From the UHGV virus genome UHGV-0022456: a stretch of 38,055 bases of DNA; one strand, 5' to 3'. Positions 688 through 35,998 of this stretch are shown here, in pieces. Position numbers and translations under genes: made by a program. The DNA is from a virus. Position 1 is the stretch's first letter. The number at the start of each line of letters is the position of its first letter. The notes beneath the pieces were generated by a model. It made no database searches and was not told the origin of the DNA. It saw only the letters and a list, made by a program, of their open reading frames with translations.

Positions 688-730
688 TTTTGCCCCTCAT
701 CATATTTCGCCTCAAATCCACTTATTGTGG

Positions 731-758
731 TTGACATTACAATGATACATGGTAATCT
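731..758 (+). promoter_or_regulatory. Sigma70-like promoter within GGTTGACAT motif
   Basis: -35 TTGACA 731-736, 16-nt spacer, -10 TAATCT 753-758, then GGGAGG SD and ATG at 784. Confidence 0.5.
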
Positions 759-783
759 GACTCATATCAACACGGGAGGTAGT

Positions 784-900
784 ATGAATCAGCAGAAATT
801 TGAATCAGCGCAACGGGCGGCAAGACTGGCAGTTAAGTGCAGAAGCAAAGGCGCATGGAAAGAGGCGATGCGCCTTCTTAGGGAGGCAATCAATGCTTGA
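784..900 (+). CDS. Small hypothetical protein (38 aa)
   Basis: ATG 784 with GGGAGG SD at 774-779; MNQQKFESAQRAARLAVKCRSKGAWKEAMRLLREAINA; stop overlaps next start (ATGCTTGA). Confidence 0.4.
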   Translation: MNQQKFESAQRAARLAVKCRSKGAWKEAMRLLREAINA

Positions 901-1039
901 CCGTCATTGTCCCATCGATCGAGACGAGCGCATCTACGCCGACAACTGGCAGGATGAGCCAACAGAGGAAGACATCGAGCGTCAGCGCTCAATCATCGAA
1001 GCACAGGCAGATTTAGAGGAGTTATATAATGGCTGGTGA
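893..1039 (+). CDS. Small hypothetical acidic protein (48 aa)
   Basis: ATG 893 preceded by GGGAGG; same frame as track ORF 800-1039 but with a real SD; MLDRHCPIDRDERIYADNWQDEPTEEDIERQRSIIEAQADLEELYNGW. Confidence 0.4.
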   Translation: MLDRHCPIDRDERIYADNWQDEPTEEDIERQRSIIEAQADLEELYNGW

Positions 1040-1202
1040 GTTTGCAGTTTACACATCGGTAGCTGTCGGCGGGAAGAGTGGCCGACAAACAAAGCAAGAA
1101 ACACGCGAGCAGGTCATTGCTCGCAATAGTTTCCCTGGTCCAGACCAGAATCGTTACATTGATAAATTTTTAGCGGAGCAGAAGAAAAATGAAGGAGCAT
1201 AA
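1029..1202 (+). CDS. Small hypothetical protein (57 aa)
   Basis: ATG 1029 preceded by GAGGAG; overlaps previous stop and the methyltransferase start; not in ORF track. Confidence 0.35.
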   Translation: MAGEFAVYTSVAVGGKSGRQTKQETREQVIARNSFPGPDQNRYIDKFLAEQKKNEGA

Positions 1203-2022
1203 CAACAGGAAAAAGGCAGATTCATTGGCAGAGTTCATAACCTCAAAGTCACTAAGGAAATTAGTGGCTAGCAAGGTTCATGAATACATTGGAGACAGGC
1301 CGGTCACTGTATTCGATGGGGCCGTTGGTTCTGGTCAGCTTGAGGAGTTTATAAAATTAAAGCACTTAGTTGGCATTGATATACAACAGGAGTCAATTGA
1401 TGCGCTGACACATAACTTTGGAGGCAGGTGCACGGGGATTGTTGGTGATTTCTTTAATGTTGTGAATGGTGTTGATGGTTTTTTTGATTGCGTTGTAATG
1501 AACCCACCATTTTCACTAAAGTGCACTAAGTCGATAGATTCCATGCCTTACACCAAAAAAACCGGCGTTCTGGACGAGTGTTTCTATGTGCTGGCAAGTA
1601 TGAAAGCAAGACTTTCGTTCTTTATTTGCTTTCCTGGTGTCGGTTATCGAAGGACAGAACAAAAAATGAGGAATTATTTTGGCAATAATGTTGCTGAAAT
1701 AATAACGGTATCTTCAGCATTTGAAGATACATCAATTGATGTGCTTCTTGTGGTGATAGATAAAAATAAGAAGTCGCCGCAAGTGTCTGTTTCTTTGTAT
1801 TCATGCAAGGATGATGAATACAAGGTGCATCCGCATGAAGAGAATCTCGACATAACCAACTGGAACAAGGCAGTAATAGAAATCGAGCGCGAAAAAATAG
1901 ACATCATCTCCCTAACCAATGAGGTAAATGAGCTATCACGTAAAAATCGCAATGCACTTGATTCATTTGATGAACTAGTTAGATCAATGATGACTGACGA
2001 GCAGCTTAAGCAAATTAAGTAA
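1189..2022 (+). CDS. N6-adenine DNA methyltransferase (orphan)
   Basis: SAM-binding motif I-like VFDGAVGSGQL followed by catalytic motif IV VVMNPPFS (NPPF); visibly AT-richer than flanks; no restriction endonuclease candidate adjacent. Confidence 0.65.
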   Translation: MKEHNNRKKADSLAEFITSKSLRKLVASKVHEYIGDRPVTVFDGAVGSGQLEEFIKLKHLVGIDIQQESIDALTHNFGGRCTGIVGDFFNVVNGVDGFFDCVVMNPPFSLKCTKSIDSMPYTKKTGVLDECFYVLASMKARLSFFICFPGVGYRRTEQKMRNYFGNNVAEIITVSSAFEDTSIDVLLVVIDKNKKSPQVSVSLYSCKDDEYKVHPHEENLDITNWNKAVIEIEREKIDIISLTNEVNELSRKNRNALDSFDELVRSMMTDEQLKQIK

Positions 2023-2126
2023 TTCAGCGAAGGATAAAGCAAATGAGCAACTGGCATAACGAACATATCATGCAGTGGTATCGCCGTCGCATTAAGGCAA
2101 TCATTAACACTTATGAGGTTTAAGAA

Positions 2127-2405
2127 ATGGCAAAGACTACATGTAGTCGAGAAGAGCTTGAGCGTCAACTATCAGAATCACGACGCGAGTTCTGGGCAGC
2201 AGATGCGACAATTAACAATCTTGAACTGAAGCTCGCAGACATGGCGGCACAGCTCGCTAACGCAGAGAACAAGTGCAGGGAGCTGGCTGCTGAATTGAGA
2301 GCCGCCAAACTTAGCCAGAATGCCAACAGTGGCATGCTTCAGGATTCCGAACCAGTAACGGATAACACGAATCAGCAATTCGAAAGATTGGCTAAAAGCA
2401 AATAG
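2127..2405 (+). CDS. Hypothetical coiled-coil protein (92 aa)
   Basis: GAGG SD upstream of ATG 2127; heptad-like LELKLADMAAQLANAENKCRELAAELRAAKL. Confidence 0.5.
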   Translation: MAKTTCSREELERQLSESRREFWAADATINNLELKLADMAAQLANAENKCRELAAELRAAKLSQNANSGMLQDSEPVTDNTNQQFERLAKSK

Positions 2406-2467
2406 CACCCGTTCATATTAATTGTCAGTGCGCTCTATGTGGCGCACGCTTTAGTGGAGATGTACGT

Positions 2468-2701
2468 ATGAGCAATAGATATATTTACCATTACCATGCA
2501 ATAACAAAAGGCGGATCGGCTTCAATGTCAGGTATTGCTCAGCTTAACTTCAGGATTAAATCACAAGAAGACCTTGATGTGTTGAAGGGGATGATTAATC
2601 GTGATGGATTCATAGCCCATGCAGTTACGTCTCTCTCATGTCTCGGTCGTGAGAATGACGACGAAGAAACAGAAACACTAACTAGCAATTCGAATCACTA
2701 A
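2468..2701 (+). CDS. Hypothetical protein (77 aa)
   Basis: GGAG SD upstream of ATG 2468; acidic C-terminus. Confidence 0.45.
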   Translation: MSNRYIYHYHAITKGGSASMSGIAQLNFRIKSQEDLDVLKGMINRDGFIAHAVTSLSCLGRENDDEETETLTSNSNH

Positions 2702-2714
2702 GCAGAGGTGATAA

Positions 2715-3119
2715 ATGAACAGACAAATAGCACTGCGCGACATCATAAAGGCCATTGTTATTCTTAAGCCAGGGGTGACGATGGCAGTAATTCAGCGGAT
2801 GATATGGACCAAAACACCAAGCGCAACAATTGGGACCGCGCTGCACTGCATTGTTGCGCAGGGACTATTCACGACACGAAGGGTAGGCAACAAAGGTCAA
2901 CCAGGGTTTAAGTGTAATGCCTACTATCCGACGAAGAAGCTACTGGACTCGTTCACGGTTACTAGCGAGATGCGGGAGTATCTTGGGCTGACGGATGTTG
3001 ACCTGAACCCAGGGAAGGCGAAGCGCAAGTGCAACACTGTCTTTGAGTCATGTAAACAAAGCCCGGCAACGAAACGCATCCTTTGGTTTTATGGGCAGGG
3101 TGAGCTGCCAGCTATATGA
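2715..3119 (+). CDS. Hypothetical protein (134 aa)
   Basis: AGAGGTG SD upstream of ATG 2715; followed by terminator hairpin 3124-3148. Confidence 0.5.
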   Translation: MNRQIALRDIIKAIVILKPGVTMAVIQRMIWTKTPSATIGTALHCIVAQGLFTTRRVGNKGQPGFKCNAYYPTKKLLDSFTVTSEMREYLGLTDVDLNPGKAKRKCNTVFESCKQSPATKRILWFYGQGELPAI

Positions 3120-3123: not shown

Positions 3124-3148
3124 AGGCCCGTAATGGGCCTTTTCTTTT
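3124..3148 (+). terminator. Rho-independent terminator between convergent early genes and terL
   Basis: AGGCCC(3124-3129)-GTAAT-GGGCCT(3135-3140) followed by TTTTCTTTT; may also serve the minus-strand packaging operon. Confidence 0.6.
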
Positions 3149-4553
3149 ACCAGGCGGAAAGGTTGTAGCCGGTGTTGAGTTGAGGCGAGAATGCACAAAC
3201 AAGGGAGTCGGCAAGGTTGTGTGATGGTATTCCGCGCTTCTTGAGTGATTCCTTGCCCTCAACCTTAATCTTACCGTTGGAGTATTCCCGGTTTGGTGCG
3301 GATAGCTCTCCCTTAAGTTTATTCAGTACCTCAGGCGCAATACAGGATGAGTCAATGCTGATGATATTATCCATGTCCACCTCTTTTCCTTCCACGACCG
3401 CCTTGTAGGTATTATGGAACCGGTCGCGCAGATACCACCAGCCCATTGCCTTCATGTTAAGGAAGTGCTGCCCATTGGTGCGCCCTGGCATGTATTCGGA
3501 GTCTGGATTGCATGGTGATTCACTGGCGGTGAATTCAGAGAACGGTACAATTTGACCATGCTGCCCTTTGGACCTCATATCGGTTTCAATCTCGCGGAAT
3601 TTACCCTTAACACCAGCGCCGACGCCGATGTTGTCGTAAATAACGTGCGATATTCCATCCTGAATGGCCTCAGCATAAACACGCTCACCAACAGCAACCG
3701 GGTCGCGGTCCTTCCATTCATCAAGCTGATAGACAATCTGCCCGTCACGGTAGCACCTGGCGTTAAAGTCTTCGCCCTCATCCATCGGGTCAAGGCCGCA
3801 GAACCTGTTTCCGGTGCGTGTTATGCCCAGCTTAAGGTGTGCGTCGATTGCTGCCTCTATCCATGAAGGTTTGATGATTGAAAGCGCGGAGTTAGCGACC
3901 GGCATCCCCAGATAGACGTGCTGGTAAAGCTCGGGGTCGTCATTCTTCATTAGCTCCATATCGATACGCAACTCCTCCGGGAATCGCGGGTTAGCGTCGT
4001 AGTTTATGCAGCGCACGATGCAGTATGGCTTGCCCTTGATGGTATCAGGGTACTTCCGGTTAGTCACGAATCGCTGATAGGTGTCATCCAGTGGCGACTC
4101 TGGGTTAAAGCTAACCCATATCTCTGAGCCTTTTTTACGCAGCGTAGGGATGAGCAGCTTCCAGGAATCTTTTGTTACCTTCGCGGCCTCCTCCACCCAT
4201 GCAGCGTCGAACCCGGCGTACCCCTTCACCTTCTGCTGGTTGCGATGCAGGCCGTCAAATTTAATGATGCCCGTTCCGCGTTTTGCCCTTATTTCAGTTT
4301 TCAGGACGTCAACCATGTCATGCAGGTTTCGGCGCTCAATCTCTTCGATAAACTCCTGGTATACGGAGTCCTCGATAGATTTCATGATTTCACGGAAGCA
4401 GACAAGGCGCCACCCGTGCCAGATGACGTTATTGAGCAGGATGGTTATGAATGTGCGGGTCTTTGCAGAGCCACGCCCACCGTATGCAACCTTGAACCTG
4501 GCTGGCTGCAAAAAGTCACGGTAGGCGCGGAAGATTTCACAGGTTTCACTCAT
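3147..4553 (-). CDS. terL: Terminase large subunit (PBSX/Terminase_3-like)
   Basis: 468 aa; N-terminal P-loop KVAYGGRGSAKT; directly downstream of and overlapping the small-subunit gene. Confidence 0.85.
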   Translation of the reverse strand: MSETCEIFRAYRDFLQPARFKVAYGGRGSAKTRTFITILLNNVIWHGWRLVCFREIMKSIEDSVYQEFIEEIERRNLHDMVDVLKTEIRAKRGTGIIKFDGLHRNQQKVKGYAGFDAAWVEEAAKVTKDSWKLLIPTLRKKGSEIWVSFNPESPLDDTYQRFVTNRKYPDTIKGKPYCIVRCINYDANPRFPEELRIDMELMKNDDPELYQHVYLGMPVANSALSIIKPSWIEAAIDAHLKLGITRTGNRFCGLDPMDEGEDFNARCYRDGQIVYQLDEWKDRDPVAVGERVYAEAIQDGISHVIYDNIGVGAGVKGKFREIETDMRSKGQHGQIVPFSEFTASESPCNPDSEYMPGRTNGQHFLNMKAMGWWYLRDRFHNTYKAVVEGKEVDMDNIISIDSSCIAPEVLNKLKGELSAPNREYSNGKIKVEGKESLKKRGIPSHNLADSLVCAFSPQLNTGYNLSAW

Positions 4554-5151
4554 CAGCGATTTTATATACTGGCGCCTGAGGAGTCATTGAGCCATCCTCA
4601 GACACATGGTTAACGGTTTCCTTGTACCCACCCAGCATCTTGATGAGCATGTCCTGCGCCTTCTGCTGGTCGGCCATTTCAAACTTCGGCCCCATCTTCG
4701 TGAAGGTGATACCTTTGATGAGTCCGCGAATTTCTTCGGGAACCTCGTCAGAGCTCATCTTCACGACCGGAACAGTCATTTCGCCAATCACCTCACCGTC
4801 ATCGTTCACCATCGGGCGCGGCTCCCAACCGATGAACTGAGTCACGTCAGCGAATGCCTGCGCCTGAATCCTGGATGCAATTTCGTCCAGGCTCATGAGT
4901 TTTGACTTGGCAATGAGTCGGCGAGCCTCACGGACGTAGGGTCCGACTTTAGGGTGGGTTAACAATTTGCATCCGGCAACTACGGCAGACTTATATGCCA
5001 CTTCTTCGCCATAGGCATGGAGATATGCTCTAGTTGCGTTACCATTAGCAATATAATGATTAGCAAATGTTAAATGGTCTTTACTCAGTTGAGCCGCCAT
5101 TTCCTCAAGCTCAGGCGTGAAGAAAGGCAGGTTGTCGTCTGCCTCTGCCAT
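4546..5151 (-). CDS. terS: Terminase small subunit
   Basis: 201 aa; N-terminal FANHYIANGNATRAYLHAYG resembles Terminase_2-type small subunits; 8-nt overlap with terL. Confidence 0.75.
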   Translation of the reverse strand: MAEADDNLPFFTPELEEMAAQLSKDHLTFANHYIANGNATRAYLHAYGEEVAYKSAVVAGCKLLTHPKVGPYVREARRLIAKSKLMSLDEIASRIQAQAFADVTQFIGWEPRPMVNDDGEVIGEMTVPVVKMSSDEVPEEIRGLIKGITFTKMGPKFEMADQQKAQDMLIKMLGGYKETVNHVSEDGSMTPQAPVYKIADE

Positions 5152-5152
5152 A

Positions 5153-5353
5153 TCAATCCTCCTCCACCAGCACCAGCTTAAACCGTGAGCGAGCGACTTT
5201 CTCGCCGTAGTTATGGATGGCGCGTGGGTTTGGTGTGTTTAAACTCTTACTGCGGCCGGGAGTAATGAATACATCCTCGCCATTAGCCGCAGCGTCCATT
5301 GCTTCTTTCATGCCGTTACGGATAAAGTCACGCGGGGTAAATTGTTTCATCAT
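5153..5353 (-). CDS. Hypothetical protein (66 aa) in packaging operon
   Basis: ORF ending 1 nt before terS start. Confidence 0.45.
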   Translation of the reverse strand: MMKQFTPRDFIRNGMKEAMDAAANGEDVFITPGRSKSLNTPNPRAIHNYGEKVARSRFKLVLVEED

Positions 5354-5902: not shown

Positions 5903-5935
5903 TTTGGCTTCTCCTGTTGTGTCAAACTTAAGGAG

Positions 5936-6180: not shown

Positions 6181-6429
6181 ATGACCGAATTAACCAACGA
6201 ATCAATGACAGAGTACGAAGAAATGCAGCAGCGTCTTATGGATGAGTTCATTAACAACATCTCTCCGTGGATTGACTGGGTTGGCATGTCTGGATTTGAA
6301 GAAAAAATGGCACGATCGGCAGTTCGCAGCCTCATCAGCCTTTCGTATTATGAAGGCACGATGAATGGCATTCGTGTGATGCAGGAGAACATGAAGGAGT
6401 TCCATGATGACGCAGCGCGTGACATTTGA
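6181..6429 (+). CDS. Hypothetical small acidic protein (82 aa), first early gene
   Basis: About 16 Asp/Glu versus 7 basic residues; AGGAG SD. Confidence 0.5.
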   Translation: MTELTNESMTEYEEMQQRLMDEFINNISPWIDWVGMSGFEEKMARSAVRSLISLSYYEGTMNGIRVMQENMKEFHDDAARDI

Positions 6430-6440
6430 GGTGTGAAGCT

Positions 6441-6623
6441 ATGAGGCTTTATCAGTGCTATCGCTGCGGAGAATCTAAAGACTGGTATCGCTTCAATCCC
6501 GGGCAGAAGTATTGGGCAAGGCAGTGCATCAGATGCGAAATGACGCCAGCCGGGATGATGCCAGTCCCGCAAGAAAGCGAACACAGGTTCAGGTGTAAAA
6601 AGATTATGAGGGCGTGCAAATGA
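6441..6623 (+). CDS. Small zinc-ribbon protein
   Basis: Track ORF 6426-6623 trimmed to ATG 6441 with GAGGTG SD; CxxC (CYRCG) and CxxC (CIRCE) pairs. Confidence 0.4.
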   Translation: MRLYQCYRCGESKDWYRFNPGQKYWARQCIRCEMTPAGMMPVPQESEHRFRCKKIMRACK

Positions 6624-6892
6624 AAAGCAGCAGAGAGCAGTTTGAAGAGTGGTATTCAAAGGCTTCCGGTCTTTGCGATATGGACCTTGAAAGCGAGTTC
6701 AACGTTGACGATAACGGAGAATATATTTACTCGGGCGCTAGAGATGCGTGGGAAGCATGGCAGGCCAGCCGTGCGGCGATTGAGATTGAATTGCCATCAA
6801 GGGAAGATCCGGCAAATTTCTTCTGTGAAGTTTATGACTGTGAGCTGGTTCATGAATCGCTGGCGAATTGCGGACTAAAGGTAAAAGCATGA
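6620..6892 (+). CDS. Hypothetical acidic protein
   Basis: ATG 6620 overlapping previous stop (ATGA); acidic composition. Confidence 0.5.
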   Translation: MKSSREQFEEWYSKASGLCDMDLESEFNVDDNGEYIYSGARDAWEAWQASRAAIEIELPSREDPANFFCEVYDCELVHESLANCGLKVKA

Positions 6893-7125
6893 ACATCTTC
6901 AGCATCATCAACATGGCGCAGGCGGCTAATCCGAAAGCCGACGTCACTATCCGAAGCGGTGGGCATGACCAAATACTAATCATCTGGCATTGGGAGGGTC
7001 ATTATCTGAACCGTCGCTATTGCAAGGCTCGCATGACCGGGCATCACTACGGCGAATATGAGGCATGGCGAATTGCATTCCATGCAGCCGCTCAGATTAT
7101 GGGCGTAGTGGAGTGCGCGAAATGA
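6889..7125 (+). CDS. Hypothetical protein
   Basis: ATG 6889 overlapping previous stop (ATGA); in frame with track ORF 6868-7125. Confidence 0.45.
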   Translation: MNIFSIINMAQAANPKADVTIRSGGHDQILIIWHWEGHYLNRRYCKARMTGHHYGEYEAWRIAFHAAAQIMGVVECAK

Positions 7126-7778
7126 TTATCTGGTCACTATTTGACGGTTCAGGAATTATGGGACAGCCGTGGGCGGAAGCCGGTCACACGGTTTATTGCT
7201 TCAACTACGACGGTGCTGACCACGGTGTATACGAAATGCGCGTGGAGCACGAAAACATCGTATATGTGAATAAGTTCATCACACCTGATTCCTGTTTCTC
7301 CGACTTCCCGGAACCGGATATTATTTTCGCATTCCCTAGTTGCACAGACTTAGCTGGATGCGGTGAGAAACACCAAAGGCAACAACCTGCAGTAAATACC
7401 GCTGTTGCCACCGCTAAGGTTGCTGAACGGTTAGGCAACGTGTACGGGGTTCCGTGGATGGTAGAAAACCCGGTAGGTAAGCTGTCCACGTTGTGGCGTA
7501 AGCCTGACCACTATTTCCACCCATTCGAATATGGTGGATATATGTCTGGAGAAGAAAATACATTTCACCCACGCATGCCTGCGCGTGACGCATACACGAA
7601 GAAAACTTGCCTGTGGACAGGAAACGGTTTTGTCATGCCTGAGCCTAAGCCGGTTCCGCACATCGGTAAGTTTTGGGGATGGGCTTATCTTGGTGGGAAG
7701 TCAGAAAAAACCAAGCAGTTACGAAGCCTGACCCCGCGAGGATTTGCACGCGCAGTATTTGAGGCCAACAAAGGTTGA
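7122..7778 (+). CDS. DNA (cytosine-5)-methyltransferase-like protein (short, orphan)
   Basis: Track ORF 7065-7778 trimmed to ATG 7122 (ATGA overlap); motif I-like LFDGSG, PC-like AFPSCTDLAG, ENV-like MVENPVG; no obvious target-recognition domain. Confidence 0.5.
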   Translation: MIIWSLFDGSGIMGQPWAEAGHTVYCFNYDGADHGVYEMRVEHENIVYVNKFITPDSCFSDFPEPDIIFAFPSCTDLAGCGEKHQRQQPAVNTAVATAKVAERLGNVYGVPWMVENPVGKLSTLWRKPDHYFHPFEYGGYMSGEENTFHPRMPARDAYTKKTCLWTGNGFVMPEPKPVPHIGKFWGWAYLGGKSEKTKQLRSLTPRGFARAVFEANKG

Positions 7779-7833
7779 CCCATCGATAACGGGGCGGGAT
7801 GATAGCCGCCCCATTCACCTGGAATAAATCATC

Positions 7834-9438
7834 ATGGCAGAAGAACAAATAAACAGCCTCGTTAACCTGGCGGCTGAGCAATCACTTATCGGCGGCGTGC
7901 TGCTACTCGGATTCGATGCGGATTTTCGCGAGCGTACGGACTACGTTTTCCAGAATGTACGGGAATCTGATTTCTATTCTTCCGCACATAAAATCATCTG
8001 GCGTGAAATCTGTGCGATGACCGACAAGGCGAAGTCGGTGGATGTAATTACCCTGTTCGACATTATCGAAAGCAAGGGGATGGGTGAAAAGATAGGCGGG
8101 TTCGCATACCTGTCAGAGATAGCAAAAGGCACACCAAGCGCCGCAAACATCAACGCCTATGCTGATATTGTGGTCGAGCGCTCAAATGCGCGTGAGGTTC
8201 TGCGCCGGATGAATGCCGCCCGTGAAATCATCACCAAAGAGGATGGTCGGTCGCTGGCTATCCGCCTGGCAGAAGCGAGTGACATTACCGCAGGCATCGA
8301 CCAGATATCAGCGGGCCGTATGCTGTTTAATCCTGTCGATGTGATCACCTCGCAGCTGGAGACCATTGATGAAGACTATTCCCTTATCGAGAAGATTTTC
8401 AATGAATGTATTAAGCACAAAGATATTACTCTGCTTACTGGCGCTGGCGGTACGGGTAAATCCTGGCTCACCATCAAACTTGGCATTTCTGTCGCGCTCG
8501 GGCGTCCCGCACTTGGCGGGAAATACAATTTCCTCACTCCCGTGGAGCAGGGGGTAGTTGTCTTCCTGATTGGCGAGGATAGCGTTGATGACTACCGGCA
8601 TCGCCTGGATAAGCTGATTAAGGCGGCGGGCATGACCCGTGATGAAAAGGCGCAGATTCTTTCGTCAATCCTGTTCGTTCCTTTGCGTGATAAGGATATT
8701 CGCCTGATTAAGCGTGAGCGTGGGGGCGACCTGGAGCAGACCGGGGTTATCCGCAATCTTGCCGCATCACTGAAGGCGTGTAACTGCCGCCTCGCCATTC
8801 TGGACCCGATGAACAAATTTGCCAGCGGTGAGGAGAACAGTAACAACGAGGCAAACGTATTTATCAACGCTGTACGGCGCGTGGTTGATTTATCCGGCTC
8901 GGCGGTGCTGATGGTCCACCACTCATCAAAAAACGACCCAGGAGGCTCGCGCGGGGCTTCTGCGCTGGTGGATGGGGCGCGTTGTCATCTAGCACTGGCA
9001 ACCATGTCGCAGCTTAAAGGCGAGAAGGCAGAACAAGGGGATGATGATGTTATCCGCCTGACCATGCCGAAGCATAACAACTTTAAAGGATGGGATGGCC
9101 CGGTGTGGCTCAAGCGAAGTGACGCTGGCGACATGCTGACGATTGACCCACCAGAGATGATTGGTACAGGAGCTATCGCCAAGCGCTTTCATGTGGATAC
9201 AACGCGCGTTAAATCGCTCATTATTGAATGCATCCGCAGCAACTCCAGACCGACAAGCACCAGCGAGTTTATTAACGCCTTCATCGAAGGGCCAGGCAAA
9301 GAGCTGTGCCCTAACTATGGTAAGGCAAAGGACATCATCGGCGAAATGCTTAACGACGGCATTCTGGAAGAAGGCACGATGTTCAATCGCAAGGTGTTGC
9401 TGGTGGCTGAGCGCGAGAGTGATAATTTCACCTGGTGA
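7834..9438 (+). CDS. Replication protein with DnaB-like N-terminal domain and RecA/RepA-like P-loop ATPase
   Basis: 534 aa; N-terminal region resembles DnaB helicase N-domain; Walker A LLTGAGGTGKS. Confidence 0.65.
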   Translation: MAEEQINSLVNLAAEQSLIGGVLLLGFDADFRERTDYVFQNVRESDFYSSAHKIIWREICAMTDKAKSVDVITLFDIIESKGMGEKIGGFAYLSEIAKGTPSAANINAYADIVVERSNAREVLRRMNAAREIITKEDGRSLAIRLAEASDITAGIDQISAGRMLFNPVDVITSQLETIDEDYSLIEKIFNECIKHKDITLLTGAGGTGKSWLTIKLGISVALGRPALGGKYNFLTPVEQGVVVFLIGEDSVDDYRHRLDKLIKAAGMTRDEKAQILSSILFVPLRDKDIRLIKRERGGDLEQTGVIRNLAASLKACNCRLAILDPMNKFASGEENSNNEANVFINAVRRVVDLSGSAVLMVHHSSKNDPGGSRGASALVDGARCHLALATMSQLKGEKAEQGDDDVIRLTMPKHNNFKGWDGPVWLKRSDAGDMLTIDPPEMIGTGAIAKRFHVDTTRVKSLIIECIRSNSRPTSTSEFINAFIEGPGKELCPNYGKAKDIIGEMLNDGILEEGTMFNRKVLLVAERESDNFTW

Positions 9439-9502: not shown

Positions 9503-11251
9503 ATGAAACAGCCACGCCCATATCAACAGGAAGCCATTAACTCCACTATCGAGGAGATTAAAAAATATGCCAAGCAGGGGAAATCAGCCCACCTGATTAT
9601 TGATGCAGGGCCTGGAGCGGGGAAGACATTGCTTATGGCTTTTTTGGCTAAGCATGTATTTGAGAGAGGTGGCCGTGTTGTGCAACTGGCTCGCCAGCCG
9701 ATACTGGCAAAGCAGAACTATGACGAGATGTACGAGTGCGGCATACCAGCCGCGCTTTACGCAGCAAAGTTCAACCGCCGTCAGGTTGCGCAGGTTACTG
9801 TTGCAACGGAGGGCACAATAGCCAATTCTCTGCATGACATGAATAAGCCGGTGGATCTTCTACTTTTGGATGAGTGTCACACTCTTAGTCCGGATGATGA
9901 AGATACGCAGATGAACACTATCATTCGACACCTGGATGATGTGACTACAAAAGCCGGCAGAAAGATGCACGTTGTCGGCCTCACGGGAAGCCCGTTCCGT
10001 GGGGTTACTCCATTAACCAGTTTCGATTTCTGGCACGATACGGTATTCAATATTGGCACTGATAAGCTGACGGAACTGGGTTACTTGTCAGTTCCTGTTT
10101 TCGGGTTCGCCGATGCCGATGATGATGCCCTGGACTTCTCCGGCGTAAACACTCGCAGCGGCTCATGGGAGTTCAGCGAGAAGGAACTCGACGAAATCGC
10201 CATGTCCGACGCAGGCAAGAAAAAACTTGTCCGCATTCTGATGCAGGTCATTGAAAAGACCAAAGACCGAAATCAGCGGATAGTCTTTGCATCTACCAAG
10301 CGACACGCCAGGGAGATTCGCCGCATCCTGATTGCCCTGGGCATCGACAAAAGCAAGATTGGCCTTGTCACTGACGATTCCAGCGAGGCAGAGAAAGACC
10401 GCGTTATCAAGCTGTCGAAGGAAGGCAAATTAGACTGGCTGATTAACGTGTCGGTGCTGACCACTGGCTTTAACTCGCCCCTGATTGACGTGGTGGTGTA
10501 CCTGCGCCCGATTGGTTCACTGGTGTTGCTGATTCAGTCAATGGGGCGAGGTGCTCGCCTGCTGGAAGACTGGATGAAAGAGGCTGGATTCCACAAAGAG
10601 AACTATCTGGTGCTGGACTATGCCGGGGTATTCGACCGGCTGGGGCATTTGCTGGATGACCCGACTACCGGCGAGGCGCTTGCTCAGCGTGATAAGTCTC
10701 GCGGAGAAGATAAACCATGCCCGCGCTGCCATGAGATGAACAGCAAGGCGGCTCGTCGCTGCCGGGCAAGGGATGAGTCTGAGCCTGATAAACGCTGTTC
10801 ATTTTTTTGGACGTCACAGATTTGCCCCGACTGCCAGACTGAAAATGACATTGCAGCTACTGAATGCCGTAATCCGTCATGCAGGCGAGAACTAAGGGAC
10901 TCAAATAAGGCTCTGCTGCATCATCCGTATTCAGATGAGGAAATGGTTGGCGTTAAGAAGATGGACGTGCTGAATACGAAAGGAGGTGCGCTAATGGTGC
11001 GCTTCACCCTGGAAGGCGACGAGCGACAACCGTACCTGATATTCCCGATGGGTGGCGATTTATCGAGGCGCATTCTGAAAAAGGAATTTGTCGATGTGTA
11101 CGTACAACCTGGCTGGCGCGGAAGGGTGGCGTCCATGAAAACAGCCGAGCAGATTGTGAAGATGGCGGGCGCATTCATGACGCCGAAGGCTATCGCATAC
11201 CGCATCAACGGCAATAACAAATATGTAGTTGGTCGCAGGAAATTCTCATGA
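9503..11251 (+). CDS. SF2 DEAH-box DNA helicase with C-terminal zinc-ribbon region
   Basis: Track ORF 9473-11251 trimmed to ATG 9503; Walker A GPGAGKT; box II LLLLDECH; C-terminal CPRCH...CRARD and CPDCQ...CRNPSC. Confidence 0.75.
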   Translation: MKQPRPYQQEAINSTIEEIKKYAKQGKSAHLIIDAGPGAGKTLLMAFLAKHVFERGGRVVQLARQPILAKQNYDEMYECGIPAALYAAKFNRRQVAQVTVATEGTIANSLHDMNKPVDLLLLDECHTLSPDDEDTQMNTIIRHLDDVTTKAGRKMHVVGLTGSPFRGVTPLTSFDFWHDTVFNIGTDKLTELGYLSVPVFGFADADDDALDFSGVNTRSGSWEFSEKELDEIAMSDAGKKKLVRILMQVIEKTKDRNQRIVFASTKRHAREIRRILIALGIDKSKIGLVTDDSSEAEKDRVIKLSKEGKLDWLINVSVLTTGFNSPLIDVVVYLRPIGSLVLLIQSMGRGARLLEDWMKEAGFHKENYLVLDYAGVFDRLGHLLDDPTTGEALAQRDKSRGEDKPCPRCHEMNSKAARRCRARDESEPDKRCSFFWTSQICPDCQTENDIAATECRNPSCRRELRDSNKALLHHPYSDEEMVGVKKMDVLNTKGGALMVRFTLEGDERQPYLIFPMGGDLSRRILKKEFVDVYVQPGWRGRVASMKTAEQIVKMAGAFMTPKAIAYRINGNNKYVVGRRKFS

Positions 11252-11736
11252 TTACTCAAGAAGAGCTAAAGAAGGCATTGAATTACGATCCATTAACTGG
11301 AATTTTCACCAGGAATATGAGGGCATCAAATCAAGTTCCTGGACAAGTTGTTGGCTCTAAAGATAGCGGTGGTTACTTGGTTGCAATGATTAACGGGAAA
11401 AGGTACTCACTACACAGGATGGCCTGGCTTTATTTTTATGGAAGGATACCAGTTGGAGATATAGACCACATAAACGGCGTTAGGGACGATAACCGAATTG
11501 TAAACCTCAGGGAATGCAGCCGTAGCAAGAATTGCATGAACAAAAAGATAAATAAAAACAACATGTCAGGAGTTAAAGGGGTTGGCTGGCATAAGCAAAG
11601 CGGCAAGTGGAGAGCAAGGATAATGATAGACGGAGAGTCTATTCATATCGGTGAATTTAAATCAATAGGTGATGCCGAGTCAGCAATATCAGAAGCAAGA
11701 GATAAAATACATAAGCAATTCGCGAGGCATTCATGA
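11248..11736 (+). CDS. HNH endonuclease with AP2-like DNA-binding domain (paralog 1)
   Basis: HRMAWLYFYG...DHINGVRDDNRIVNLR HNH core followed by SGVKGVGWHKQSGKWRARI AP2-like segment; AT-rich; ATGA overlap with helicase stop. Confidence 0.7.
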   Translation: MITQEELKKALNYDPLTGIFTRNMRASNQVPGQVVGSKDSGGYLVAMINGKRYSLHRMAWLYFYGRIPVGDIDHINGVRDDNRIVNLRECSRSKNCMNKKINKNNMSGVKGVGWHKQSGKWRARIMIDGESIHIGEFKSIGDAESAISEARDKIHKQFARHS

Positions 11737-12149
11737 TAAGGAAAAATCAAAGCCATGACGGTTATTTTATTTACTGGGATGATGAGGCAAAGGGAGATTG
11801 CCGACTTGAGGTATCAGAGCAGATTGACGCTATGGCATGGCTGAAGGAGTTTTACCCGGATGCCAGGAAGGTGACTTTTCATGTACCGAACGAGAGCGAT
11901 TCTAAGCCTCAGTACAGGGCATCTCTTCAGCAGCAAGGGGTAACGTCAGGCGTTAGCGATATCGTTACGCTGTGGGGAACTGGTGCGGTTTTTGAGATGA
12001 AGCGGGCCATCAAGTCGAAGTCATCCGTTAGCAAAGAGCAGCGGGAGTTTCTGAGGCTGTCCCATCAGCAAGGGAAGTTTGCCGCATTGTGCTACGGAGC
12101 TTCAGCTTTTAAGCAGGCATGGGTTGACTATCTCGCCACTTTTAATTAA
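11733..12149 (+). CDS. VRR-NUC domain nuclease
   Basis: 138 aa; PD-(D/E)xK-like GVSDIVTLWGTGAVFEMKRAIK; ATGA overlap with upstream HNH gene. Confidence 0.6.
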   Translation: MIRKNQSHDGYFIYWDDEAKGDCRLEVSEQIDAMAWLKEFYPDARKVTFHVPNESDSKPQYRASLQQQGVTSGVSDIVTLWGTGAVFEMKRAIKSKSSVSKEQREFLRLSHQQGKFAALCYGASAFKQAWVDYLATFN

Positions 12150-12177
12150 GGTTGACATAATACAAGGAGGGAACACA

Positions 12178-23335: not shown

Positions 23336-23362
23336 GATTGGTCTCCGTGTTTGGTTGACATA

Positions 23363-23608: not shown

Positions 23609-23611
23609 CAC

Positions 23612-23740
23612 TCAATCCTCATCTTCATAATCAGAAAAACACTTAGCAGAAAGGTTATCCCCATCGCAAAGCGTTGCTTTTCCGTACATCTCAAATATCC
23701 ATTTTGCAAAATCCAGCGTAACTTTGTCATATGCTGTCAT
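23612..23740 (-). CDS. Small acidic ORF (42 aa), not in ORF track
   Basis: ATG overlaps stop of upstream TM2-like gene (ATGA); MTAYDKVTLDFAKWIFEMYGKATLCDGDNLSAKCFSDYEDED. Confidence 0.3.
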   Translation of the reverse strand: MTAYDKVTLDFAKWIFEMYGKATLCDGDNLSAKCFSDYEDED

Positions 23741-24036
23741 TTCTTCACCCCATATTTCCGGTTGATTTCCTGCTCACTGGTACATAGCAGGATAATGAAC
23801 TCGATAAACGCCACGAAAAAGTTAATACCAGTCCAGCAGAACAGAATGTACATTACGCCTGAAAACGGGCGCCCCAAGTAGAAGCGGTGGATGCCAATGA
23901 ATCCGAAGAAGAAGCACAGCAGCACGGCGGTAACTTTGCTCTTTGTGTAAACCTGTTGCTTAGAGCCACAGTTAGGGCAGCTGGTGGCTGATTCGTGGAT
24001 TTGCGCTCCGCAGGCGCGGCAGTAGATGTTGCTCAT
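23737..24036 (-). CDS. Zinc-ribbon / TM2-domain-like membrane protein
   Basis: Track ORF 23737-24060 trimmed to ATG 24036 with AAGGAGAG SD; CRACG...CPNCG zinc ribbon then two hydrophobic helices with GIHRFYLGRP. Confidence 0.55.
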   Translation of the reverse strand: MSNIYCRACGAQIHESATSCPNCGSKQQVYTKSKVTAVLLCFFFGFIGIHRFYLGRPFSGVMYILFCWTGINFFVAFIEFIILLCTSEQEINRKYGVKK

Positions 24037-24046
24037 TTCTCTCTCC

Positions 24047-24214
24047 TTATCGCGCAGCAATCATTGCTTGCCAGATGAACACGACGGCATCCTGCAATTG
24101 CTCGTCATCTAATCCATCCTCCAATCCCGGAACGTCCTCCAGTAACTGCTTAATGCCAGCTTGAATTTGTTCATCTGTTGGCTGGAGTGCCACTTCAAAT
24201 TTAGGTAATGACAT
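24047..24214 (-). CDS. Small acidic protein (55 aa), not in ORF track
   Basis: ATG at 24214 with GAGAGGAAA SD; MSLPKFEVALQPTDEQIQAGIKQLLEDVPGLEDGLDDEQLQDAVVFIWQAMIAAR. Confidence 0.4.
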   Translation of the reverse strand: MSLPKFEVALQPTDEQIQAGIKQLLEDVPGLEDGLDDEQLQDAVVFIWQAMIAAR

Positions 24215-27330: not shown

Positions 27331-27833
27331 CGAATTGAGCTGACCAGTTGACCGGTGTCAACCAGTGGGTTATCTGATTTCTTCTTCTCAATGGTGCTTT
27401 GTGCGTTTGGCGGTGACTTCAGTTGCACGATTGCCTGCTGAACATCCTGTTGCGCAACCTCGCCAAGCCTGCCCATTGCCTGCCGCAGGTTATAATTCTC
27501 TTCATTCATCACGCGAGCGGTAATCTTGCCGAGAATCTGGATGTACTTCACTTTCTCTTTCGCAAATGTCGGTCTCAGCGTCGGGCGCTCAGGAATACGC
27601 GATGTGCCGAACTCGTTCCACCAGTACACCTCTGCGACCGTTTCCCCCGTGGCATGTCCCTGCTCATCCTTGTGCGCTCCAGCGTCACTATGAACCCCAA
27701 CAGCTACAGCGTGCGCGCCAATGCGGCGCTGAATATCACGTATGGCGTTAGGATTGCGGATCACCAGCCTATTTCTAGCAGCCATACAGATTCGCCGATT
27801 GAGTGAGGTACGGACCAGCGCCAAAGATGGCAA
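27303..27833 (-). CDS. Head-tail connector-like protein (hypothetical)
   Basis: 176 aa; structural operon position. Confidence 0.35.
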   Translation of the reverse strand: MPSLALVRTSLNRRICMAARNRLVIRNPNAIRDIQRRIGAHAVAVGVHSDAGAHKDEQGHATGETVAEVYWWNEFGTSRIPERPTLRPTFAKEKVKYIQILGKITARVMNEENYNLRQAMGRLGEVAQQDVQQAIVQLKSPPNAQSTIEKKKSDNPLVDTGQLVSSIRWAYVKPEE

Positions 27834-33626: not shown

Positions 33627-33735
33627 TGTTGTGTGCCGGTCTTTCCCGTCTGTCATTTACACCACAACGGGGTCAGCGTTGCTTTGAGGCTATCCAATGC
33701 TAGCAAGGTTAGTATTGCCAAATCGTGGAGCTATG

Positions 33736-34011
33736 TCAATCTATTGGTTTCCCCAGTGCGTGCATATCCCCGGATGATTTCGATAATATATCAGCCAGCC
33801 TTCCGAGCTGCCCAGCTATGTCAGATAGATTTTCATTTATCTGCTGTATTTCCTCTTTCAGTGTTGAGCCGCCACCGTAAGGAGTCATGCCAAGCTGCAT
33901 GGCTATAGCCTCAAGAAACTTCGGGGTGTCGTCGCTATCGGTAACACCAAGCCCGCGAGAAATCACGGACACCAATGAATGCAGGTCTTCATTTGTTGTT
34001 TTGTTTTTCAT
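33736..34011 (-). CDS. Hypothetical protein (91 aa)
   Basis: ORF downstream of Arc-like ORF; acidic, Gly-rich centre. Confidence 0.45.
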   Translation of the reverse strand: MKNKTTNEDLHSLVSVISRGLGVTDSDDTPKFLEAIAMQLGMTPYGGGSTLKEEIQQINENLSDIAGQLGRLADILSKSSGDMHALGKPID

Positions 34012-34153: not shown

Positions 34154-34158
34154 TGCTG

Positions 34159-34511: not shown

Positions 34512-34736
34512 TTTACTGTCTGGCATTTTGTCGCCGTTACACTTTTTCTTCCATGTTTCGTTGTGGGCCAGAATCTGGCGCAGCGTGCCATCGGTCATGT
34601 GGTCGATTTCACCGGCATCCATCCAGATTGGGCGAACCCAGTAGCAAGACGTGTCAATTACCTGGACGGGTCCATTCGTCGCGCAGCTTGTCGCGGACAG
34701 AGCCAGGATTGCTGCGCATAACTTCATCTTTAACAT
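34506..34736 (-). CDS. o-spanin (Rz1-like lipoprotein) overlapping i-spanin gene
   Basis: Internal start in track ORF 34506-34868; MLKMKLCAAILALSATSCATNGP signal/lipobox-like with Cys; different frame overlapping 3' end of Rz-like gene. Confidence 0.45.
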   Translation of the reverse strand: MLKMKLCAAILALSATSCATNGPVQVIDTSCYWVRPIWMDAGEIDHMTDGTLRQILAHNETWKKKCNGDKMPDSKG

Positions 34737-34917
34737 CGTTTGCCACCTTAACGGATTCTGTGCGGGCTTTCTCTTGCTCCACGGATTGCTGCGCCTGCTG
34801 GATATCGGATTTAGCTTTCTGCTCGGACTTGCCGCGAGACTTGCCACCGAACCACAGCCCGACAGCACCGATGATTAGCGCGGTGATTGCGCCGATGATT
34901 GTGCTGAGGGTTATCAT
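34654..34917 (-). CDS. i-spanin (Rz-like)
   Basis: 87 aa; N-terminal TM helix ITLSTIIGAITALIIGAVGLWF then charged coiled coil; follows holin. Confidence 0.55.
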   Translation of the reverse strand: MITLSTIIGAITALIIGAVGLWFGGKSRGKSEQKAKSDIQQAQQSVEQEKARTESVKVANDVKDEVMRSNPGSVRDKLRDEWTRPGN

Positions 34918-34950
34918 TTATCAGCCTCCTGAAGCCATGCTGCCTGCCAG

Positions 34951-35175
34951 TTATCCAGAGGTCGAATCATCTTTCTTTTCCCTCACCGCAATCAGCTTAT
35001 TGACAGAGTTGCCAGCCACGACGACGGCGAGATAGATGCCGAACATCTCGGTCGTCAGTGTGTTCTGATATGCCTGCCAGACGATGACGCCTGACGCAAT
35101 CACTACGCCGATGAACTGGCACGTTTTTGACAGAGAGAAGTCGCCGACGGGCGAGGTGAGCAGGTCTTTAATCAT
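34951..35175 (-). CDS. Holin-like small membrane protein
   Basis: Track ORF 34951-35196 (TTG start) trimmed to ATG 35175 with GGGGAA SD; two hydrophobic helices; charged C-terminus; between endolysin and spanins. Confidence 0.5.
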   Translation of the reverse strand: MIKDLLTSPVGDFSLSKTCQFIGVVIASGVIVWQAYQNTLTTEMFGIYLAVVVAGNSVNKLIAVREKKDDSTSG

Positions 35176-35243
35176 CGGTTCCCCAGAATAGCGCAAGCAG
35201 TATGACCACTACTGTAGCACCAATGCAGATCTCGACCAAACAA

Positions 35244-35792
35244 TCATAGGGAAATGCGATTGGCAATCCAGCCATAAGCGAAAGCCTCGTTCTTCTGGTT
35301 GGCCTCTGCCAGCTCGATATACCGCGCACCCTGAAGGCAGTTCAGCGCCTTGAGCATCACGGTTTCACCTTGCTTGCCACGCGCACCAAGATAGCTTTTC
35401 AGTGCTGATGCAGTAGCCGGCCCGACCTTTCCATCGACAGCAATATCAGCGTATGCCTTGCCCTGGTTGTTAAAGGCGTTCAGGCATCGCTGAAGGAACT
35501 TTCCCGCCACAGATGGCCCCATGTTCACGCCGGTATCAATCACCTCGGCAGCGATGGATTCAGACAGCGGTAGCAGCAGGTCAAACTTCGGTTTCGAAAC
35601 GTATTGAGTGTAGTAGATGTTTTCGGCAAGTGAGATAGGCAGGTCTTTCATTGCCCCGGTGTAGCCATTGGAAACAGCTACCGCTTTGGTAATGCCGTAC
35701 ATCGTTTCGCCGCCGGAGTCATTTGGGTTATTTGAGTAACCACCTTCGGCTTTGATGATGTCATCAATAATTGACTTTACAGCCGGGGTCAT
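35244..35792 (-). CDS. Endolysin, GH108-type N-acetylmuramidase with C-terminal peptidoglycan-binding region
   Basis: Track ORF 35244-35870 (GTG) trimmed to ATG 35792 with GAGG SD; hallmark EGGYSNNPNDSGGETMYGIT. Confidence 0.75.
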   Translation of the reverse strand: MTPAVKSIIDDIIKAEGGYSNNPNDSGGETMYGITKAVAVSNGYTGAMKDLPISLAENIYYTQYVSKPKFDLLLPLSESIAAEVIDTGVNMGPSVAGKFLQRCLNAFNNQGKAYADIAVDGKVGPATASALKSYLGARGKQGETVMLKALNCLQGARYIELAEANQKNEAFAYGWIANRISL

Positions 35793-35894
35793 AAAAACCT
35801 CATTATTAAGTTTTGGCTCGATTCGCAACCAGTGGGCCGCCGAGGCATACTTGCCTGTCGGCGTTGCCACGCTGCCACCCTTGGAAGCGTAGCC

Positions 35895-35923
35895 AATTTA
35901 ACATATAAAAAAGCAAAAGTCAA
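35895..35923 (-). promoter_or_regulatory. Sigma70-like promoter for lysis cassette
   Basis: Minus strand -35 TTGACT (plus 35918-35923), 17-nt spacer, -10 TAAATT (plus 35895-35900). Confidence 0.5.
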
Positions 35924-35970
35924 AAGAGAGAGCACAAAATGACACTGGTGAAAATAGATTGATATAGTGG

Positions 35971-35998
35971 TTGACATTAGGTGTGGGTGAGGTAAGAT
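35971..35998 (+). promoter_or_regulatory. Sigma70-like promoter within GGTTGACAT motif for right-end + strand genes
   Basis: -35 TTGACA 35971-35976, 16-nt spacer, -10 TAAGAT 35993-35998, GAGAGGAGAAAG SD, ATG 36029. Confidence 0.5.

Follow-up and report, generated by a model that had tools for sequence, protein, structure and literature searches.

A probable lineage-specific extended -35 box at about eight predicted promoters of a small Escherichia coli myovirus

Introduction

The E. coli sigma-70 promoter joins a TTGACA -35 hexamer to a TATAAT -10 hexamer across 17 bp, and the extended Hawley-McClure consensus, tcTTGACat, carries a weak preference for tc ahead of the -35 hexamer. T4 early promoters have GTTTAC in the -35 region together with upstream A-tracts, and the strong early promoters A3 of T7 and PL of lambda read ...cGGTTGACAac... 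and ...gtGTTGACATaaa..., respectively. A pairing of -35-dependent with extended -10 promoters accompanies anti-sigma-region-4 factors in T4 (AsiA) and in the Thermus phage P23-45 (gp39).

Here we describe the motif GGTTGACAY in a window of 38,055 nucleotides (the whole stretch of DNA analysed), which represents a phage of ~38 kb and a close relative of Escherichia phage BUCT618, the only GenBank genome of a lineage whose next capsid relatives fall below 30% identity. The motif shares with the E. coli sigma-70 promoter a perfect TTGACA followed by a pyrimidine (in most cases T), a 16-17 bp spacer, a TAnnnT -10, an occasional TGn and short leaders that carry a Shine-Dalgarno sequence, but it has GG where the extended consensus has tc, and its -10 boxes are poor. 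As in T4 early promoters, many non-orthologous host-polymerase promoters of a virulent phage share positions outside the hexamers; unlike in T4, the extra information consists of two bases beside a canonical -35, and it is known here from sequence alone. T7 A3 and lambda PL are likewise strong host-polymerase phage promoters with (G)GTTGACA(T/A) and a cATCA start-site context, but they are single promoters whose G residues are not known to have a role, whereas the motif described here forms a genome-wide family, and the lambda flanks are operator sites with a dyad symmetry that is absent here. The switching of T4 AsiA and P23-45 gp39 is resembled by a perfect -35 with a weak -10 at replication and early genes and by TGnTATAAT at structural modules, although no AsiA- or gp39-like protein was found in this phage and its terminase operon falls in the -35 class. 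Like the linkers of lambdoid mosaic junctions, the boxes are short conserved border sequences that coincide with recombination junctions, except that the shared sequence is a promoter element and that only the junction 34503/33733 is precisely bounded by repeats.

Results

The 9-mer GGTTGACAT occurs seven times in the window, each copy at the position and on the strand given in a preliminary description, which had put the chance expectation at about 0.3; dinucleotide shuffles give 0.35, none of 100 shuffles reaches seven copies, and the k-mer counts thus bear out the enrichment over shuffled controls. The variant GGTTGACAC that had been placed at 24429-24437(-) is also present, along with two copies absent from the earlier list, at 5399-5407(-) and 27355-27363(-), and GGTTGACAY as a whole occurs ten times. 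Under an order-3 Markov model, GGTTGACA, GGTTGACAT and TGGTTGACAT are the top over-represented 8-, 9- and 10-mers of the window. Every motif copy contains a perfect TTGACA, its ninth base being T, C or A, and GG precedes 11 of the 25 TTGACA hexamers in the window, at a background GG frequency of 0.048. A -10-like hexamer, defined by A at position 2 and T at position 6 and located 16-18 bp downstream of the -35, accompanies 8 of 11 GGTTGACA sites, compared with 0.119 at random positions and with only 4 of the 14 TTGACA hexamers that lack GG. A consensus promoter scan of the left half of the window returned no more sites than shuffled sequence, so the case rests on the specific motif and its conservation.

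All promoter calls are sequence-based and draw on sequence, spacing, orientation and evolutionary footprint. Seven copies (729, 5407-, 6125, 9443, 24437-, 34511-, 35969) place a perfect -35 at 16-17 bp before a TAnnnT-type -10, in agreement with the earlier proposal that TTGACA serves as a -35 hexamer in most copies. These canonical copies lie between genes or at a gene end and are directed at a downstream gene or RNA, each facing a gene start 17-35 nt past the predicted start site, or else a leader RNA or a tRNA, an arrangement that copy 23353 does not share; their orientation and position support the view that such copies mark the starts of transcription units. The -10 boxes of these promoters, which we call class A, are consistently poor, with 3-4 of 6 matches. 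A T4-type middle promoter, with a MotA box at -30, was rejected as a candidate identity: the -35 is canonical and AsiA/MotA matches are absent.

P729 (729..758, plus strand) combines GGTTGACAT (729-737), a 16-bp spacer and a TGg-TAATCT -10 (753-758), and is predicted to drive genes 784..3119 from a leader of ~19 nt; in BUCT618, L003 and L004 its box and -10 are retained around a different spacer. A conserved antisense promoter, TTGATA(770-765)-N17-TATCAT(747-742), overlaps it and has its start site inside the motif. P5407 (5377..5407, minus strand; GGTTGACAC, 17-bp spacer, GATAAT, 11/12 match), predicted to drive a 66-aa gene and the terminase genes (5353..3147), supplies the upstream gene's TGA stop codon from within its TTGACA and is fully conserved in BUCT618, L003 and L004. 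On the plus strand, P6125 (6125..6155; GGTTGACAT, 17-bp spacer, TAGATT) is predicted to drive 6181..9438, its orthologs carrying GTTTGACAT in BUCT618 and L004 and a different spacer in L003, and P9443 (9443..9472; GGTTGACAT, 16-bp spacer, TGg-TAAGGT) is an internal promoter 4 nt past the stop codon of a DnaB-like helicase, predicted to drive 9512..12149; five orthologs keep its box and -10, and in L002 homology stops just past the promoter. P24437 (24408..24437, minus strand; GGTTGACAC, 16-bp spacer, TATAGT, 11/12 match) follows a terminator at 24469-24454 and is predicted to drive a structured leader RNA and a small-gene cassette (24214..23408); its box shows no change in 13 relatives, which diverge after it between TATAGT with the leader and TATGCT with other genes. 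P35969 (35969..35998, plus strand; GGTTGACAT, 16-bp spacer, TAAGAT) would drive the early rightward genes from 36029, and seven orthologs share its box (as GTTTGACAT in BUCT618) and its TAAGAT, with spacers that vary.

Ortholog alignments covered about 18 related genomes or loci, including BUCT618, four IMG/VR genomes and nine metagenome contigs. TTGACA is unchanged in every ortholog and the -10 is kept, while the spacer diverges in sequence at a fixed length; on these alignments, fixed hexamers around a drifting spacer are the classic footprint of a promoter. The GG is less constrained than TTGACA, being altered in just five orthologs (three times to GT, once each to TG and GA), and the flanks differ from promoter to promoter. 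GG stands on 8 of the 9 promoter groups of the clade, across non-orthologous promoters, and on 67 of its 147 distinct TTGACA contexts, compared with none of the 20 in coliphage Rogue1, which served as control; by this comparison the prefix is specific to this phage lineage. Three promoters lack it: P5964 (TTGACA(5964-5959)-N17-TAAATT(5941-5936), minus strand), a conserved resident promoter with the prefix TA or TG, and the promoters 33739 and 34056, which lie at the edge of or within inserted foreign DNA.

P34511 (34481..34511, minus strand; GGTTGACAT, 17-bp spacer, AACAAT) is a hybrid in which a resident upstream half and box are fused to a foreign spacer and -10. Its TTGACA contains the TGA stop codon of an upstream 43-aa ORF, and homology to every relative stops precisely where the box ends on its 3' side. 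The other half of the ancestral promoter has been displaced to 33739 (33711..33739, minus strand; (ga)TTGACAT, 17-bp spacer, AATACT), whose spacer, -10 and downstream sequence align with the GGTTGACAY promoter of the relatives and which leads to a hairpin and a tRNA-Asn gene (33515-33441). Between 34503 and 33733 lies a 770-bp insert with TTGACAT direct repeats at both borders. Homology with relatives also breaks off at or inside the promoters 24437, 9443 (in L002) and 12150.

The remaining copies depart from this arrangement. The unusual geometry noted earlier for two of them is as described: copy 12150 (12150..12158, plus strand; GGTTGACAT) overlaps the TAAGGT of TTGACT(12124-12129)-N17-TAAGGT(12147-12152) and can itself also be read as TGaCATAAT, and copy 23353 (23353..23361, plus strand; GGTTGACAT) covers the point where a promoter of the opposite strand starts. 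Copy 12150 directly follows the VRR-NUC stop codon, 20 nt before the ATG at 12178, and has a CACAAT at -10 spacing that is not conserved. At the same place, directly past the VRR-NUC stop, L004 and L005 have GGTTGACAC-N16-TATGAT driving an extra small gene, and the L002 box has degenerated to GGTTGACTC; judged from these orthologs, copy 12150 is a promoter remnant. Copy 23353 is an orphan on the strand opposite all neighbouring genes, with no -10 found at 16-18 bp and no plus-strand ORF found beyond it, and it is invariant in 13 relatives except for one TGTTGACAT. The minus-strand promoter TTTTCA(23391-23386)-N17-TGtTATAAT(23371-23363) is predicted to drive the tail chaperone and tape-measure genes; since the motif begins 2 nt downstream of its TGtTATAAT and spans ~+1 to +10, copy 23353 covers its start site.

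A degenerate copy, GTTTGACAC (5919..5927, minus strand), sits 8 nt downstream of the P5964 -10, with the ATG at 5902 following ~20 nt later; at this site L003 and L004 carry GGTTGACAC and BUCT618 carries GCATGACAC, so it is weakly constrained. Copies 5925 (in L003 and L004) and 12150 stand ~20 nt ahead of a start codon, a position from which a -35 box could not drive that gene. Two intragenic copies without a -10 partner, GGTTGACAC within a structural gene (27355..27363, minus strand) and GGTTGACAA (29477-29485, plus strand), the latter kept in relatives as coding sequence, are most likely coding or chance occurrences.

Structural-gene modules carry a second class of promoter, TGnTATAMT extended -10 elements that lack a -35 and in many cases are fused to the terminator before them. 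Five of these, at 37(+), 33394(-), 28450(-), 23371(-) and 18123(-), combine TGn and a near-consensus -10 with no -35 consensus, and they are conserved in relatives even where the upstream sequence is non-homologous. The two classes suggest a temporal switch from -35-dependent to -35-independent transcription.

Discussion

We consider GGTTGACAY most probably (a probability of about 0.7) to be the -35 element of a family of strong host sigma-70 promoters, with two lineage-specific G residues added at -37/-36; neither an RNA polymerase gene nor a sigma gene was found in the phage. The motif is a real yet largely ordinary signal, a lineage-specific extended -35 box at about eight promoters, and a separate regulator superimposed on these promoters is possible but unsupported. 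A perfect -35 paired with a mediocre TAnnnT -10 at 16-17 bp, sometimes aided by TGn, would start the early and middle units, which comprise replication and recombination genes, the terminase operon, the small-gene cassette and a tRNA. Binding of sigma region 4 to TTGACA would supply most of the recruitment energy, with the GG contributing either intrinsically to polymerase binding or as a contact for some factor. Because identical short sequences stand at module boundaries, the boxes may double as recombination junctions, which would account for both the hybrid promoter 34511/33739 and the relic at 12150.

Two observations are left unexplained by -35 function, namely the GG common to independent promoters of this lineage alone and the wrong-strand orphan 23353, invariant in 13 relatives. 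The preliminary description had preferred a regulator site to a plain -35 box; copy 12150, as a promoter remnant, no longer speaks for that preference, and only copy 23353 survives scrutiny, keeping the idea alive as an invariant site with neither a -10 partner nor a gene to drive. We regard it as unlikely that the motif is additionally or instead bound by a phage or host protein (a repressor, an activator or a partner of sigma region 4) that reads GG+TTGACA, coordinates the early promoters and, through the orphan, holds back the tail-gene promoter until -35-dependent binding is off. The lineage-specific GG on non-orthologous promoters, the invariant orphan covering the start of a promoter on the other strand, the like geometry at 729 with its conserved antisense promoter starting inside the motif, the coexistence of -35-dependent and extended -10 classes and the many small early proteins without known function are all consistent with such a protein. 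However, the sites have no surrounding dyad or direct-repeat symmetry, and their flanks differ; inverted repeats occur at 729 (ATTGT/ACAAT) and at 23353 (CCGTGTT/AACACGG), each peculiar to its site and coinciding with other signals, the 5-bp repeats around 729 being absent at other sites. The GG tolerates G-to-T or G-to-A in five orthologs, the motif occurs on just one of the five extended -10 promoters, copy 12150 is decaying or left over from a deletion, and copy 5925 lacks conservation. Pfam and PHROGs searches detected no DNA-binding, sigma or anti-sigma family and, among early genes, no sigma, RNA polymerase, AsiA-like, helix-turn-helix or repressor family; PDB sequence searches for a cognate protein were empty and AlphaFold single-sequence models were poor. 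An RHH-like 54-aa ORF (33989-34153) sits in a window-specific insert and so cannot serve the whole clade. A more specific proposal, that a phage protein, working on sigma-70 region 4 or together with it, reads GG+TTGACA, sets the phage's own -35-dependent promoters apart from those of the host and joins the hand-over to extended -10 structural promoters via orphan 23353 and the antisense promoter at 729, seems quite improbable; if true, it would amount to a new, small circuit of sigma appropriation or anti-sigma action in a T1-related lineage of myoviruses.

It is very unlikely that the box is kept mainly as a recombination linker at module boundaries for RecT/YqaJ cassette swaps, with promoter activity secondary. 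The phage does encode RecT and a YqaJ-type exonuclease, TTGACAT repeats bound the 770-bp insert (34503-33733) with ancestral promoter halves on either side, and homology breaks coincide with four of the sites described above; yet 7-9 bp is a very small stretch to direct exchange by homology, every mosaic phage can be expected to have junctions at its gene boundaries, the conserved -10 boxes and 16-17 bp spacing are needless for recombination, and the motif is, with one exception, strictly co-oriented with transcription. That orientation, with the dispersal of the copies and their tie to gene starts and to -10 boxes at fixed spacing, also makes it highly improbable that the motif is the target of a non-transcriptional DNA process such as methylation or restriction, replication from iterons or packaging: the phage encodes at least two DNA methyltransferases, and GTTGAC fits the GTYRAC recognition pattern, but the clustering expected of iterons or of a pac site is absent.

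The reading of GGTTGACAY as an extended -35 box does not overturn current understanding, and it gives the small E. coli myoviruses of this barely studied lineage a usable transcription map of ~eight -35-dependent and five extended -10 promoters. A lineage-specific GG beside a perfect -35 poses a question of promoter recognition, namely whether it acts with pure sigma-70 holoenzyme or in infected cells only, and the TTGACAT-bounded insert offers a concrete case of promoter boxes as junctions of phage mosaicism. In practical terms, these sequences may furnish compact, strong promoters for E. coli. Separately from the motif, the structured RNA leader downstream of P24437 is supported by covariation, absent from Rfam and common to many unrelated coliphages; apparently undescribed, it is the more surprising of the two.

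Probable promoters formed by the repeated box

The preliminary description had listed seven copies of GGTTGACAT in the window, and all seven are borne out, against 0.35 expected, although it had overlooked 5399-5407(-), a copy that makes a good promoter, and two more that lie inside genes. With a pyrimidine at the end (GGTTGACAY) the motif occurs ten times and as GGTTGACA eleven times, and these words head the over-represented 8-, 9- and 10-mers of the window. GG, which makes up 4.8 % of dinucleotides, precedes 11 of the 25 TTGACA hexamers.

At seven copies TTGACA stands 16-17 bp upstream of a -10-type hexamer: 729 (TAATCT, with a TGn extension), 5407(-) (GATAAT), 6125 (TAGATT), 9443 (TAAGGT, with a TGn extension), 24437(-) (TATAGT), 34511(-) (AACAAT) and 35969 (TAAGAT). 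Such a hexamer accompanies 8/11 GGTTGACA sites, as compared with 12 % of random positions. The canonical copies aim at a gene start 17-35 nt past the predicted start site, except for 24437, followed by a leader of 160 nt, and 34511/33739, two halves of one ancestral promoter that lead to a hairpin and a tRNA. At 5402-5404 and 34506-34508 the box includes the TGA that ends the gene upstream, whose last sense codon is GGT; a stop codon inside a TTGACA -35 box is extreme signal packing. We consider the motif to be, with a probability of about 0.7, an extended -35 box that is specific to this lineage and belongs to promoters of the sigma-70 type. Its novelty is low, as it adds to an already known kind of signal, and literature searches with the motif strings matched only primers and unrelated papers.

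Conservation and the GG prefix

We aligned the window with BUCT618 (L001), IMG/VR genomes L002-L005 and L017-L020, and metagenome contigs L021-L029. At orthologous promoters TTGACA is unchanged throughout and the -10 is conserved, with a spacer that is fixed in length and drifts in sequence, as seen at the promoter P35969 (taaggcatagatgcgg, taggatgtgggtgcgg, ttaggtgtgggtgagg). The GG prefix is nearly always retained, the departures being GT three times and TG and GA once each, and the ninth base of the motif is T, C or A. This pattern is the evolutionary signature of a promoter, and the core motif is therefore GGTTGACA rather than the 9-mer.

Within this clade, GG is present in 8/9 non-orthologous promoter groups with a perfect TTGACA; the one group without it is the conserved promoter before gene 5902 (TTGACA(5964-5959)-N17-TAAATT), where TA or TG stands instead. 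GG likewise stands on 67/147 distinct TTGACA contexts clade-wide, whereas it is found at 0/20 TTGACA hexamers of Rogue1, an E. coli phage that uses the host polymerase, and the window's TTGACAT promoters in or at the edge of a foreign insert, 34056 and 33739, do not carry it. By these comparisons, GG belongs to the lineage's own promoters and not to E. coli promoters at large, its conservation having been assessed within the clade reached by metagenome and IMG/VR scans (relatives 76-98 % identical in the query protein). On the 5' side of GG only a weak T/A preference is seen, with gtGG in four plus-strand early promoters. The prefix may aid the polymerase directly, provide a contact for a factor, or be inherited.

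Copies outside the canonical promoters and the case for a regulator

The preliminary description had proposed a regulator site superimposed on promoters, pointing to 12150 and 23353 as copies that overlap other promoter elements. For 12150 this proposal is superfluous. The VRR-NUC stop codon abuts the box, and the ATG at 12178 comes 20 nt after the box; at the same position L004 and L005 carry GGTTGACAC-N16-TATGAT, a small cysteine-rich extra gene and, next, the 12178 ortholog, and L002 carries GGTTGACTC. The window copy is therefore best read as a -35 that an insertion or deletion left over or has yet to complete, and TTGACT-N17-TAAGGT or TGaCATAAT, both overlapping the box, may act as the promoter of the 12178 gene. 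A third copy of this kind, 5925(-), is weakly constrained: the window has GTTTGACAC, BUCT618 has GCATGACAC, and GGTTGACAC stands in L003 and L004. The copy at 23353 lies on the plus strand amid minus-strand genes, with neither a -10 at the right distance nor an ORF downstream, and is invariant in 13 relatives with the single exception of TGTTGACAT. It sits 2 nt downstream of a minus-strand TGtTATAAT, on the start site of the tail chaperone/tape-measure promoter; its plus strand also reads TGaCATAAT, an extended -10-like sequence that overlaps the minus-strand box in the palindrome ATAATTAT, and the minus-strand leader here (TCAACC...ACGGAG) resembles other leaders. What keeps it conserved may be the start region and leader of the minus strand, a twin promoter in divergent orientation, or a true regulatory site.

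A regulator retains some standing because GG is unexplained and the orphan 23353 is invariant. Positive support is absent: no dyad or repeat symmetry was found at the motif sites of the window, Pfam and PHROGs searches of ~40 ORFs revealed no regulator, sigma or anti-sigma factor, and PDB sequence searches with three candidate early proteins gave no match. AlphaFold single-sequence models of a 134-aa protein (2715-3119) and a 166-aa protein (5402-5902) reached pLDDT 52 and 41, the former displaying an H-H-H-strand-strand pattern that offers a hint at most. We consequently regard a superimposed regulator as improbable, and favor the extended -35 box.

We also rejected a mini-ORF or plus-strand gene at 23353, as the Shine-Dalgarno-like sequence is not conserved, ATG-AAA-AAA is the complement of a terminator U-run, and no ORF follows. 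The geometry of 23353 recurs at 729: the start of a conserved antisense promoter, TTGATA(770-765)-N17-TATCAT(747-742), falls within the motif. This element, 742-770(-), lies wholly within the promoter P729 and has TATTAT instead of TATCAT in L003 and L004; each of the two promoters has its -35 box on the predicted start site of the other, and the antisense one would drive a small ORF that begins near 680 on the minus strand.

Promoter boxes as probable recombination junctions

Homology with all relatives stops precisely where GGTTGACAT has its 3' end, at 34503, and the relatives' spacer, -10 (AATACT) and hairpin resume 770 bp on, after a second TTGACAT at 33739-33733. The intervening 770 bp are therefore an insert flanked by direct repeats of the box, and the ancestral promoter is cut into two hybrids. 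Other junctions fall in or just after promoters: at 12150, at 9443 in L002, and at 24437, where TATAGT and the leader alternate with TATGCT and other genes. As the phage encodes RecT and YqaJ, short identical boxes could plausibly serve for exchange, and we regard such recombination as a consequence of the identity of the boxes, not as the reason for their existence.

The insert, 33733-34511(-), is specific to the window and holds its own promoter (34056) and three small ORFs, including an RHH-like one of 54 aa (33989-34153). It begins with a promoter followed ~85 nt on by an intrinsic terminator, and this stretch (~34475 to 34390) could be a small RNA or attenuator. The split promoter is that of the lone tRNA gene, a tRNA-Asn (GTT) at 33441-33515(-); BUCT618 has a tRNA-Ile (30390-30463) in the same position, and in both phages the gene lies downstream of the same promoter. 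Next to the tRNA, 33517-33620 matches Salmonella and E. coli siphophages.

A structured leader RNA

The transcript from the 24437 promoter (GGTTGACAC) opens with an element of ~160 nt, 24402-24242(-), for which 172 GenBank phage records have an unannotated intergenic counterpart of 79-97 % identity. These come from unrelated genera (Dhillonvirus, Tempevirinae, Murrayvirus, Sortsnevirus and others), and in every case a -10-like box stands just before the element and differing genes follow it. Clear covariation supports a GNRA-type hairpin, a helix that encloses it and shows at least 8 different sequence pairs, and a closing helix that joins the ends, with double changes at every pair in two helices. 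A covariance model of 31 instances scored 0.344, against 0.145 for shuffles (0/500 as high), and slid controls did not exceed 0.094. No conserved ORF was found in the leader, a search of Rfam 15 recognized the tRNA alone, and literature searches returned one coincidental guide-RNA match and nothing on Dhillonvirus RNAs. The element may be an undescribed cis-acting RNA, either riboswitch-like or a put-like processive antiterminator.

A second promoter class

Extended -10 boxes (TGnTATAMT) with no -35 consensus precede five units. Four boxes are on the minus strand: 33394-33386 before the portal and head module, 28450-28442 before a small gene that follows the capsid gene, 23371-23363 before the tail module, and 18123-18115 before the baseplate module. 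The fifth, 37-45(+), precedes gene 115-432. Three of the five are joined to a preceding intrinsic terminator, whose U-run gives a weak TTTTCA/TTTTCT at -35, and relatives keep these boxes even beside non-homologous upstream sequence. Some phages change promoter class by blocking sigma region 4, as T4 does with AsiA and P23-45 with gp39. The division here between -35-dependent promoters and extended -10 promoters of structural genes resembles those systems, but no such protein was found and the terminase operon is on the -35 class; by analogy, we can only hypothesize that the two classes point to a temporal switch.

Start regions and a divergent control region

The sequence (A)TCAAC(A/C) is frequent in predicted start regions, and leaders read CAACA(n)GGAG right before the start codon; examples are 765-772, 24403-24407, 36005-36010, 23355-23359 and the leaders of other promoters. 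TCAAC lies within 10 nt of the -10 at 4/16 promoters, its per-position frequency being 0.0015, and may be a common initial transcribed sequence or a translation-enhancer context. Pairing of GGTTGA at the -35 with downstream TCAAC as an inverted-repeat operator was rejected, given a spacing of 29-37 bp and the lack of TCAAC at half of the promoters. A 280-bp divergent control region, 5903-6180, contains several further conserved promoter-like elements and, between the leftward P5964 and rightward P6125, an invariant AT-rich block (TTATCATATTATTTTTATAAAGTCAAT), which could be a UP element or additional promoters.

Genome content

The 38,055-bp window is a nearly complete phage genome whose sole close GenBank relative is Escherichia phage BUCT618 (38,270 bp, ~89 % identity in mosaic blocks); for the capsid, the next GenBank relatives are <30 % identical. 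Plus-strand genes run from 35969 via the window end to ~15100 and encode a DnaB-like helicase, a SNF2/DEAD helicase, VRR-NUC, RecT, YqaJ exonuclease, methyltransferases and several HNH endonucleases; minus-strand genes, ~35870 to 15137, encode lysis, head and contractile-tail proteins, with the terminase genes in a minus-strand unit of their own (5902-3147). Pfam and PHROGs detected no RNA polymerase, sigma factor, integrase or repressor families among the ~40 ORFs, and the structural region is without a match across 5,426 complete E. coli genomes, from which we infer a virulent phage reliant on host RNA polymerase; lysogeny operators were rejected on the lack of integrase, repressor and genomic matches. 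Four HNH endonuclease genes (11248-11736, 12452-12958, 13901-14434 and 37217-37930), two of them with AP2-like domains, lie in blocks that have no BUCT618 counterpart and break up the replication and recombination module, and they look like free-standing homing endonuclease insertions.
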